Assembly (NCBI RefSeq): GCF_003018255.1
Contig: NZ_CP027440.1
DNA length: 64,000 nt
DNA from: Escherichia coli
GTDB lineage: Bacteria; Pseudomonadota; Gammaproteobacteria; Enterobacterales; Enterobacteriaceae
Strand: one strand, 5' to 3'
In this document: positions 18,481-34,568 of the stretch, in pieces
Position numbering within the stretch: the stretch's first letter is position 1
How the letters are laid out: every line of letters starts with the position of its first letter
Notes under the pieces: generated by a model
The model's input: the letters and a program-made list of their open reading frames with translations, nothing else
Told to the model about the DNA's origin: nothing
Database searches by the model: none
Translations under genes and position numbers: made by a program

Positions 18481-21282
<2,802 letters not shown>

Positions 21283-23606: not shown

Positions 23607-24645
23607 ACGCAAGGCACAAAGTCGCGCGATGTTTGGCGGATTCGATGCCCAGCTCAATCAACTCCATTACCTGGATTGCCTGACTTGCCGGAACCGGATT
23701 TTCACCATCGCCATTTAACGCATCACGAATAGCCGCATAGTAAGCCGGATAATTCCCTGGTACTGTCAACAGCGTTTCTTCGACACGTTCCTCACCTTCC
23801 ACGCGGGTAAGTACGCCATCACGCATATCGTAGCCCCAGTCTTCCTGCGGCAGACGCTCGCCATTTTTCAGACGTTCTTCCTGTGGATCGAGGCCATATT
23901 TCACATAACTGCCTCGGGATCCATGCACGATATAACGTGCTGAATCAGCGGCTGCCAGCATGGTGCCGTGTAAAATGACTCGCCGCTGCGGATAGGACAA
24001 GATGGCGTGGAAATAATCAGTCGACTGCGCTCCGGGCCGTAACTGTGCCAAATCTACCGTCATGCTAACCGGTAAACCAAATAGCGTAATGGCCTGATCA
24101 AGAAGATGCGGTGCTAAATCGTACCAGATACCGCTGCCAGGGCCGCCCTGTTCACGCCAACGATCGCGCACCTGCGGACGGAAGCGGTCAAAATGAGACT
24201 CAAAGTAAGCAACTTCCCCCAGCACGCCTTCCGTGAGCAAACCTTTTAGCGTCAGGAAATCGCTATCCCAGCGACGGTTATGGAATACAGACAGCACACG
24301 CCCCAGGCTTTTTGCCAGCGCTTCCAGCTCTCGCGCTTGTGACAGTGTCACGGTAAAGGGTTTATCAACGACCACATGTTTACCCGCCTCAAGCGCCGCT
24401 TTGGCTAACGGGAAATGGGTATCGTTGGGTGTAGGGATGACAATCAGGTCTATGTTGGGATCGTTAAACAGATGCTTCGGCTCAGAGACAACCGTAACCG
24501 TTGGCCAGTCGGCTTTTACTTTTGTTTCATCGCTGCTGGATATTACCGCCAGTTCCAGCCCGGGCGTGCCCGCAATCAGGGGCGCATGGAAGGTTTTGCT
24601 CGCATAACCATACCCAATCAACCCAACACGGATGTTGTCGCTCAT
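23605..24645 (-). CDS. ydgJ: Gfo/Idh/MocA-family oxidoreductase, 346 aa from ATG at 24645
   Basis: ORF 23605..24684; N-terminal Rossmann fold GLIGYGYASKTFH. Confidence 0.85.
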   Translation of the reverse strand: MSDNIRVGLIGYGYASKTFHAPLIAGTPGLELAVISSSDETKVKADWPTVTVVSEPKHLFNDPNIDLIVIPTPNDTHFPLAKAALEAGKHVVVDKPFTVTLSQARELEALAKSLGRVLSVFHNRRWDSDFLTLKGLLTEGVLGEVAYFESHFDRFRPQVRDRWREQGGPGSGIWYDLAPHLLDQAITLFGLPVSMTVDLAQLRPGAQSTDYFHAILSYPQRRVILHGTMLAAADSARYIVHGSRGSYVKYGLDPQEERLKNGERLPQEDWGYDMRDGVLTRVEGEERVEETLLTVPGNYPAYYAAIRDALNGDGENPVPASQAIQVMELIELGIESAKHRATLCLA

Positions 24646-26103: not shown

Positions 26104-26684
26104 ATGACTGACTACCTGTTACTGTTTGTCGGAACTGTACTGGTCAATAACTTTGTACTGGTCAAGTTTCTCGGTCTCTGTCCGTTTATGGGGGTTTCCA
26201 AAAAGCTGGAAACCGCGATGGGCATGGGGCTGGCAACAACGTTTGTGATGACGCTGGCGTCTATTTGCGCCTGGCTTATCGATACGTGGATTTTGATCCC
26301 ACTTAATCTGATTTACCTGCGCACCCTGGCATTTATTCTGGTGATTGCTGTGGTCGTGCAGTTCACCGAGATGGTGGTGCGCAAAACCAGCCCGGTGCTT
26401 TACCGTCTGCTGGGGATTTTTTTGCCGCTTATCACCACCAACTGTGCAGTGCTCGGCGTGGCGTTGCTGAATATCAATCTCGGGCACAATTTCTTGCAGT
26501 CGGCGCTGTACGGTTTTTCCGCCGCTGTCGGTTTTTCGCTGGTGATGGTTCTCTTCGCAGCTATCCGCGAACGCCTTGCTGTGGCTGATGTCCCGGCACC
26601 TTTTCGCGGTAATGCCATTGCGTTAATTACCGCAGGTCTTATGTCTCTGGCCTTTATGGGCTTTAGTGGTTTGGTGAAGTTGTA

Positions 26685-26685
<1 letters not shown>
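26104..26685 (+). CDS. rsxA: Rsx/Rnf complex subunit A
   Basis: 193 aa polytopic membrane protein; first gene of the rsxABCDGE cluster. Confidence 0.92.
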
Positions 26686-29382
<2,697 letters not shown>

Positions 29383-30440
29383 ATGGTATTCAGAATAGCT
29401 AGCTCCCCTTATACCCATAACCAGCGCCAGACATCGCGTATTATGCTGTTGGTGTTGCTCGCAGCCGTGCCAGGAATCGCAGCGCAACTGTGGTTTTTTG
29501 GTTGGGGTACTCTCGTTCAGATCCTGTTGGCGTCGGTCAGTGCTCTGTTAGCCGAAGCTCTCGTACTCAAACTACGCAAGCAGTCGGTAGCCGCAACGTT
29601 GAAAGATAACTCAGCATTGCTGACAGGCTTATTGCTGGCGGTAAGTATTCCCCCCTCGCGCCATGGTGGATGGTCGTGCTGGGTACGGTGTTTGCGGTGA
29701 TCATCGCTAAACAGTTGTATGGCGGTCTGGGGCAAAACCCGTTTAATCCGGCAATGATTGGTTATGTGGTCTTACTGATCTCCTTCCCAGTGCAGATGAC
29801 CAGCTGGTTACCGCCACATGACATTGCGGTCAACATCCCTGGTTTTATCGACGCCATACAGGTTATTTTCAGCGGACATACCGCCAGTGGTGGTGATATG
29901 AACACACTACGCTTAGGTATTGATGGCATTAGTCAGGCGACACCGCTGGATACATTTAAAACCTCTGTGCGTGCCGGTCATTCGGTTGAACAGATTATGC
30001 AATATCCGATCTACAGCGGTATTCTGGCGGGCGCTGGTTGGCAATGGGTAAATCTCGCCTGGCTGGCTGGCGGCGTGTGGTTGCTATGGCAGAAAGCGAT
30101 TCGCTGGCATATTCCCCTCAGCTTCTTAGTAACGCTGGCGTTATGCGCAACGTTGGGCTGGTTGTTCTCACCAGAAACACTGGCATCACCGCAAATTCAT
30201 CTGCTGTCTGGTGCGACTATGCTCGGCGCATTCTTTATTTTGACTGACCCGGTTACTGCTTCTACGACCAATCGTGGTCGTCTTATTTTCGGCGCGCTGG
30301 CGGGTATATTAGTCTGGTTGATCCGCAGTTTCGGCGGCTATCCTGACGGCGTGGCTTTTGCCGTCCTGCTGGCGAACATCACGGTTCCTCTGATCGATTA
30401 CTACACGCGTCCGCGCGTCTACGGCCATCGCAAAGGGTAA
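29383..30440 (+). pseudogene. rsxD: rsxD (Rsx/Rnf subunit D) interrupted by an apparent -1 frameshift; fragments 29383..29700 and 29670..30440
   Basis: Two ORFs in different frames are colinear with one RnfD-type protein; the frame switch maps to a C6 run at 29650-29655. Confidence 0.8.
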
Positions 30441-30443
30441 ACC

Positions 30444-31064
30444 ATGCTGAAAACTATCCGAAAACACGGCATTACACTGGCACTATTTGCAGCGGGTTCT
30501 ACAGGGTTAACTGCGGCCATCAACCAGATGACCAAAACGACAATTGCTGAACAGGCCAGTCTGCAACAAAAGGCGTTATTTGATCAGGTGCTGCCAGCCG
30601 AACGCTATAACAATGCGCTGGCACAGAGTTGCTATCTGGTCACTGCGCCAGAGTTAGGTAAAGGTGAGCATCGGGTTTACATCGCCAAACAGGATGACAA
30701 ACCGGTAGCCGCCGTTCTGGAAGCAACCGCGCCAGATGGCTATTCTGGTGCGATTCAGCTGCTGGTGGGAGCCGATTTTAACGGCACGGTACTAGGCACG
30801 CGCGTGACAGAGCACCACGAAACGCCAGGGCTTGGCGATAAAATCGAACTGCGCCTTTCTGACTGGATCACCCATTTTGCGGGTAAAAAAATCAGTGGTG
30901 CGGATGATGCGCACTGGGCGGTGAAGAAAGATGGTGGTGATTTCGACCAGTTCACCGGCGCGACGATTACTCCCCGCGCGGTGGTAAATGCGGTAAAACG
31001 CGCCGGATTGTACGCTCAGACGTTACCGGCACAACTTTCTCAACTTCCTGCCTGTGGAGAATAA
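30444..31064 (+). CDS. rsxG: Rsx/Rnf complex subunit G (FMN-binding)
   Basis: 206 aa; N-terminal TM; operon position. Confidence 0.9.
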
Positions 31065-31067
31065 AGC

Positions 31068-31763
31068 ATGAGCGAAATTAAAGACGTTATTGTTCAGGGG
31101 TTGTGGAAAAACAACTCTGCGCTGGTCCAGTTGCTCGGCCTTTGTCCGCTGCTGGCGGTCACGTCCACTGCCACCAACGCCCTGGGTTTAGGACTTGCGA
31201 CTACGCTGGTACTGACGCTGACCAACTTGACCATTTCGACGCTGCGTCACTGGACGCCAGCCGAGATCCGCATTCCCATTTACGTGATGATCATCGCCTC
31301 GGTGGTCAGCGCTGTCCAGATGCTGATCAACGCCTACGCCTTTGGCCTGTATCAATCATTAGGGATTTTTATTCCGCTGATTGTCACTAACTGTATCGTT
31401 GTGGGCCGCGCTGAAGCCTTCGCCGCCAAAAAAGGTCCGGCGCTTTCGGCACTGGACGGTTTTTCAATTGGTATGGGCGCAACCTGCGCCATGTTCGTGC
31501 TGGGTTCACTACGCGAAATTATCGGCAATGGCACGTTGTTTGACGGTGCAGATGCGCTGTTAGGTAGCTGGGCAAAAGTATTACGCGTGGAAATTTTCCA
31601 CACCGACTCCCCTTTCCTGCTGGCGATGCTGCCACCAGGTGCATTTATTGGCCTGGGACTGATGCTGGCAGGAAAATACCTGATTGATGAAAGAATGAAA
31701 AAGCGCCGTGCTGAAGCAACTGCCGAACGTGCATTGCCAAACGGTGAAACAGGGAATGTCTGA
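31068..31763 (+). CDS. rsxE: Rsx/Rnf complex subunit E
   Basis: 231 aa polytopic membrane protein, paralogous to rsxA. Confidence 0.9.
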
Positions 31764-32424: not shown

Positions 32425-33008
32425 ATTGATAACCTTTCTTTATCCTCTTTTAAAACATCTTTTTAACGTCAATGATGCCATTGCTTAGCGTTATCATCAG
32501 GTAATCCGTTTGCGGATAACCAAAAATGCAGGTTAATTGTTTTTTTAATAGCGAAATTTTCTATTCATTCGTGATCAAGATCACGATGCTGTGGCAATGT
32601 AAAAACATTGCAAGAACTAGGTTAAAATCATTTAAATTTACACACGCAACAAATATTGACCTACAAAACATTACACTGGCTATTTTTCAGAAACTGGACT
32701 ATCTCACTAGGAAAAACGCTAAATAGCAGAACATATCGCCGTTAAGCCATCATCCCCCTCTCAGGGTAGTGAAAAAATCTGCCGTTACGTTTTTTGAAAA
32801 ATTTAACGCTGGATAACATTTCCCGGAATGGTTGAATTCCCCGCCTCAGTTATATGTAACAGATTATTACAAAGGACTTGTCTGAAAATGCAAGATAGTG
32901 AACATTACCTGCCGTTTCCCCTCCCACTATAACAATTGCGCGTATGTTTTTTAGGCATAACGCGAGAAAGCACCCCCGTTAATATGGGATGTAAAAAAAG
33001 AGGTAAAA

Positions 33009-34532: not shown

Positions 34533-34568
34533 AAGCCGCTAACTTTTCGTTAGCGGCTTTTTTTTTTG
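34533..34568 (+). terminator. strong rho-independent terminator after dtpA
   Basis: AAGCCGCTAA-CTTTTCG-TTAGCGGCTT stem followed by about 10 T. Confidence 0.85.

Follow-up and report, generated by a model that had tools for sequence, protein, structure and literature searches.

The rsxD gene in the window, the whole 64-kb stretch of Escherichia coli DNA that was analysed, is recorded as two pieces in different reading frames, and this split most probably (with a probability of about 0.8) stems from a homopolymer-length error in the consensus sequence, an under-called run of seven C (C7) entered as six (C6), in a strain whose rsxD is intact. Such an error is favoured, on circumstantial evidence, because the private changes of the window are all indels, two of them at its longest homopolymers; because the sister genomes all have C7; because C6 turns up again in K-12 assemblies and in other, unrelated ones; and because it shows a strong association with megabase contigs. 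Judged by sequence comparison, the one-base deficit is a definite difference from every close relative and not a chance pattern; that this particular C6 call is an error is a step that we infer. A preliminary description of this DNA had offered as alternatives a genuine or phase-variable slip and a homopolymer sequencing or assembly error; on the grounds just given the error is favoured, and phase variation is unsupported.

The gene is unambiguously plain RsxD, identified by its colinearity with the annotated rsxD of E. coli genomes; gene, operon and position are the same as for E. coli RsxD/RnfD (PF03116), whereas the recorded form is split after residue 91. There is no uninterrupted ORF of approximately 352 amino acids in the sequence as recorded, the frame being broken at the C6 run. 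In intact rsxD the C7 run spans codons 90-92 (CCC CCC CTC, Pro-Pro-Leu) within the context ATT CCC CCC CTC GCG CCA, and alignment shows that the window has one C fewer. The upstream ORF (Table 1) consists of 91 native RsxD residues, ending in ...AVSIPP, followed by 14 out-of-frame residues. The downstream ORF contains RsxD residues 97-352, including an SGAT motif at 276-279; the start usually picked for it by gene callers is GTG 29676, giving 254 aa, and only a weak GGTGG element is found ahead of ATG 29670 and GTG 29676. The break is located in a hydrophobic segment (residues 82-116) and parts the first 91 residues from the portion with the SGAT motif, which we take to hold the FMN-binding threonine of RnfD and NqrB homologues. 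Both fragments of equivalent split loci match PF03116 (NQR2_RnfD_RnfE), as does the intact 352-aa RsxD of a sister genome.

The preliminary description had read rsxD as these two ORFs, the second of them colinear with the rest of an RnfD-type protein, and had attributed the split to a single missing nucleotide at the C6 run. The ORFs and their translations agree with this reading, and alignment with intact rsxD, which that description had proposed as a check, gives C6 versus C7, including in the comparison with MG1655. Inserting one C computationally produces, as had been expected of an extra base, a single ORF of 1059 nt for a 352-aa RsxD; this protein matches the RsxD of sister genome GCA_029307295.1 at every residue and that of K-12 at all but 4. 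The arrangement as two ORFs, which had been considered as a possible normal structure of the gene, is not the norm: an in-frame single ORF is, and PGAP treats C6 alleles as frameshifted pseudogenes. A missing G instead of a missing C, considered on the basis of the sequence CCCCCGCTC, was ruled out by the alignment, in which intact alleles including that of MG1655 have C7.

Table 1. Positions in the window of the rsx operon, the parts of the split rsxD, and the other private length changes
Feature	Coordinates	Strand	Remarks
malI indel pair	19081-19121	-	private; within ORF 18481-19509
rsxABCDGE operon	26104-31763	+	ORFs matched to DETEC-S792 and MG1655 annotation
rsxA	26104-26685	+	intact
rsxB	26685-27263	+	intact
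rsxC	27256-29382	+	intact
rsxD	29383-30440	+	membrane subunit (RnfD type) of the Rsx complex that reduces SoxR; frameshifted as recorded
Upstream rsxD ORF	29383-29700	+	105 aa; stop TGA 29698-29700
C6 homopolymer	29650-29655	+	site of one-base deficit; intact alleles have C7
Downstream rsxD ORF	29670-30440	+	256 aa from ATG 29670
rsxG	30444-31064	+	intact
rsxE	31068-31763	+	intact
T10 run	34558-34567	+	tail of gstA hairpin terminator; T9 in all relatives

The surroundings of the split gene are unremarkable. It sits between rsxC and rsxG, colinear with annotated operons, the other members of the operon are all intact, and the order rsxABCDGE-nth is normal. The window covers an ordinary stretch of the E. 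coli chromosome, from ydgH to mdtK; no IS elements or other decay were found in its 64 kb, and the closest complete genome, that of DETEC-S792, is colinear with it, 99.3% identical, and separated from it by only five indel events. Over rsxD, identity to complete E. coli genomes does not go above 99.2%, which raised the suspicion of pseudogene decay of the Shigella type; this was rejected because of the colinearity of the 64 kb with ordinary E. coli, the lack of IS elements, and the small number of indel events relative to DETEC-S792.

The 3' part of rsxC (28900-29340) contains tandem repeats of approximately 96 nt, and RsxC has 708 aa in the window versus 740-741 aa in K-12 and many others; therefore, the copy number of the repeat varies between lineages. 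In malX (20710-20727), the in-frame hexamer TTCCTG is present three times, versus twice in DETEC-S792 and two other contigs (L023 and L024), so that MalX has 532 aa in the window and 530 aa in the two-copy form; this looks like a genuine polymorphism because the three-copy form is common to the near-clonal sisters L021 and L025. A 66-aa ORF between nth and dtpA (32526-32726) is called as a gene in some public assemblies, has no Pfam match, and is probably spurious.

If the deficit is not an error, it could be a real loss of function private to this strain, in which replication slippage on C7 removed one C; we consider this unlikely, although the base is indeed missing from the recorded sequence and no site in rsxD is more prone to slippage than C7. 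In that case RsxD would be cut short after residue 91, in its hydrophobic segment, and the remainder would be translated poorly or never; with the Rsx complex out of action, SoxR would remain oxidised longer, and soxS and its regulon (efflux and oxidative-stress defence) would be up. Polar effects on rsxG and rsxE would be possible; such effects, or effects through translational coupling, were raised in the preliminary description and are relevant only to a real deletion.

The close relatives of the strain argue against a real deletion. The exact 708-aa RsxC of the window was used as a tag of its lineage, and in 23 of the 23 contigs carrying it that were read, an intact 352-aa rsxD lies directly downstream. 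The window also has a rare RsxD allele, defined by D147, T257, S269 and I309, the intact form of which is represented by 106 blocks; 24 contigs with this form were read, all of which have C7 and a 352-aa gene. Every sister contig read thus has C7, and exact searches with the frameshifted downstream fragment of the window's lineage, in its 256-aa and 254-aa versions, returned no record from public protein data. Sister genome GCA_029307295.1, obtained as three overlapping pieces, covers positions 7217-63944 of the window (56.7 kb), and 24.6 kb of the two are 100% identical. Only 2 SNPs separate them over the 56.7 kb (at 23886 and 34193), both of which are G to T changes (contigs L021 and L006) and, according to outgroups, derived in the sister, leaving the window with 0 private substitutions over this distance. 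Against this stand four private indel events in the window, namely C7 to C6 in rsxD, T9 to T10, and the two members of a -2/+2 pair in malI. The ratio, with a non-coding change and the malI pair among the indels, is unlike that of real divergence; four indel events and no substitutions relative to clone-mates look, on the sequence comparison, like a consensus artefact instead. A mutator strain was ruled out because it would have left many substitutions.

In a census of homopolymers in the ancestral state of the 64 kb, no G/C run other than C7 reached a length of 7 and no A/T run other than T9 reached 8. It is therefore the longest run of each kind that is altered, whereas none of the 25 A/T runs of 7 is, nor are the other G/C runs of 6 in the comparison of the window with the sister. 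The second private length change, the T10 run, follows the hairpin GCCGCTAAC-TTTTC-GTTAGCGGC of the gstA terminator, and among 5,422 complete genomes T10 at this site is sporadic, being present in 14. Mutation by slippage likewise depends on run length, so that real mutation would favour the longest runs as well, a point that counts against the reading as an error.

The malI pair consists of a -2 event (T5 to T3 at 19081) and a +2 event (duplication of CA, 19120-19121) that are 39 nt apart; the frame is kept and 13 residues are replaced (AGSSDDLRRMAEE becomes VQEAAMTCDGWQK). The pair is absent from the 5,413 complete E. coli genomes searched and from all sister contigs, and the protein index has no record of the variant MalI. 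It is probably another consensus error, but not of the homopolymer type. That it is not a typical homopolymer miscall counts against an error at rsxD.

Tract lengths were counted in complete E. coli genomes (about 5,420) within the same 76-base context. C7 is present in 4,431 genomes, C6 in 92 of 5,418, and C8 in 2, a bias toward under-counting (92 versus 2). The genomes with C6 come from lineages unrelated to one another, among them O157:H7, O145, O103, O22:H8 and ETEC O6:H16 as well as isolates of avian and canine origin, and at least 17 of the 60 matches listed are CDC STEC strains of one accession series (CP027xxx). According to a paper cited in PMC7285328, 77 such CDC STEC genomes were generated with PacBio; the connection of the CP027xxx series to PacBio goes by that citation and by the strain names. 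C6 is also present in the K-12 derivatives JW5437-1 and ER2683, each of which differs from MG1655 over 40 kb only by the missing C in rsxD, and in each of which rsxD is annotated as 'frameshifted' by PGAP. That these K-12 assemblies have C6 while matching MG1655 at all other positions of the 40 kb is a further argument against a real deletion. Among predicted proteins, the 105-aa product of C6 is found in identical form on 544 contigs from many E. coli, the 109-aa product of C8 on 236 contigs, and the 108-aa product of C5 on 24 contigs.

The size of the contigs was used as a stand-in for sequencing technology. Blocks of the C6 product number 158 on contigs larger than 1 Mb, 7 on contigs of 50 kb to 1 Mb, and 673 on contigs smaller than 50 kb (mostly smaller than 5 kb). 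For four control proteins of the window's lineage combined, the corresponding numbers are 10, 363 and 163. Contigs of 50 kb to 1 Mb are typical of short-read isolate drafts; C6 is common on megabase assemblies of the long-read type and nearly absent from contigs of draft size. This heavy enrichment on megabase contigs also speaks against a real deletion, whereas the few draft-size contigs that do have C6 speak for one; the 7 draft-size blocks and the 673 blocks on small contigs count against an error, and some real C6 alleles may exist among them. In three public C6 contigs larger than 4 Mb (L013, L014 and L015), rsxB, rsxC, rsxG and rsxE are also split or truncated within 6 kb; they exemplify noisy long-read assemblies that went into the databases unpolished.

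Selection can favour the loss of rsx function, which counts for a real deletion and against an error: in evolution experiments with antibiotics or oxidants, knocking out rsx is adaptive. Mutations of rsxC and rsxD were fixed under such selection; with amikacin plus chloramphenicol, the change in rsxD was a 1-bp deletion at nt 254 (PMC5405530); rsxD L23* arose under tetracycline selection (PMC9746992) and a SNP at nt 426 of rsxD under H2O2 selection (PMC3588905). Constitutive expression of soxS in rsx mutants is attributed to Koo et al. 2003 as cited by PMC5405530 and PMC3588905. An indel at the very C tract considered here, c.274dupC (p.Leu92fs), was called in a study based on Illumina data (PMC10967516). 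If the C6 of the window is real, its consequence would be the same as in these laboratory-selected mutants (no re-reduction of SoxR, soxS up); those mutants differ from it in having their changes at other positions (the deletion at nt 254, L23* and the SNP at nt 426) and in being confirmed under selection.

A more elaborate proposal regards the C7 run as a genuine mutational hotspot that is used repeatedly, C6 and C8 turning Rsx off and soxS on and raising multidrug and oxidative tolerance, slip-back or low-level -1 decoding on CCC CCC restoring the protein, and the window and part of the 92 C6 genomes being real; we find it quite improbable. The tract as a functional switch, either with phase-variable ON and OFF states of Rsx (C7, C6 and C8) or with C6 decoded by a -1 ribosomal or transcriptional slip, is hardly credible, although public data contain C5, C6 and C8 variants and CCC CCC would permit perfect -1 re-pairing of tRNA-Pro, from CCC 29653-29655 back to 29652-29654, to give exactly the wild-type protein (...IPPLAPWW...), a possibility that by itself does not show slipping: C7 is short for a G/C contingency tract, the counts of C7, C6 and C8 in complete genomes are far from even, the in-frame single ORF is the conserved state with nothing to suggest programmed recoding, no variation in tract length was seen among near-clonal sister contigs, and length variants follow contig size rather than lineage. 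The tract does resemble phase-variation contingency loci in being a homopolymer within a coding region whose length variants switch the frame; unlike such loci it is short, nearly universal as C7, and invariant among clonal sisters, and rsxD is a gene of a housekeeping redox complex, whereas contingency loci are surface or restriction-modification genes.

If the C6 call is instead a consensus error, a real C7 would have been under-counted by one while the consensus of the genome was being built; the strain would have an ordinary intact 352-aa rsxD in a normal rsxABCDGE operon, and the appearance of two ORFs would arise in the record, not in the cell. The window has in common with homopolymer under-calling by long-read or flow-based methods a single-base deficit in its longest G/C run without substitutions, and the C6 of rsxD has in common with it recurrence in unrelated assemblies and K-12 derivatives, annotation as 'frameshifted' by PGAP, a bias toward deletion, and occurrence on contigs larger than 1 Mb. 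The window is unlike products of such under-calling in being otherwise very clean (approximately 2 homopolymer changes in 64 kb) and in containing the malI pair, which is not a classic case. A search of the literature for rsxD together with a homopolymer tract found nothing. The split is nothing new biologically, being the 'frameshifted' rsxD already flagged by PGAP in many assemblies.

If the deletion were real, a strain without re-reduction of SoxR should over-express the soxS regulon, a phenotype that is linked to antibiotic tolerance and has been seen before in laboratory mutants. The split rsxD, if an artefact, matters mainly for data quality: the C7 run would give a false rsxD pseudogene in approximately 1.7% of complete E. 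coli genomes, K-12 derivatives included, and p.Leu92fs should be treated with suspicion wherever pseudogenes are counted, pan-genomes tabulated or losses of rsx claimed.
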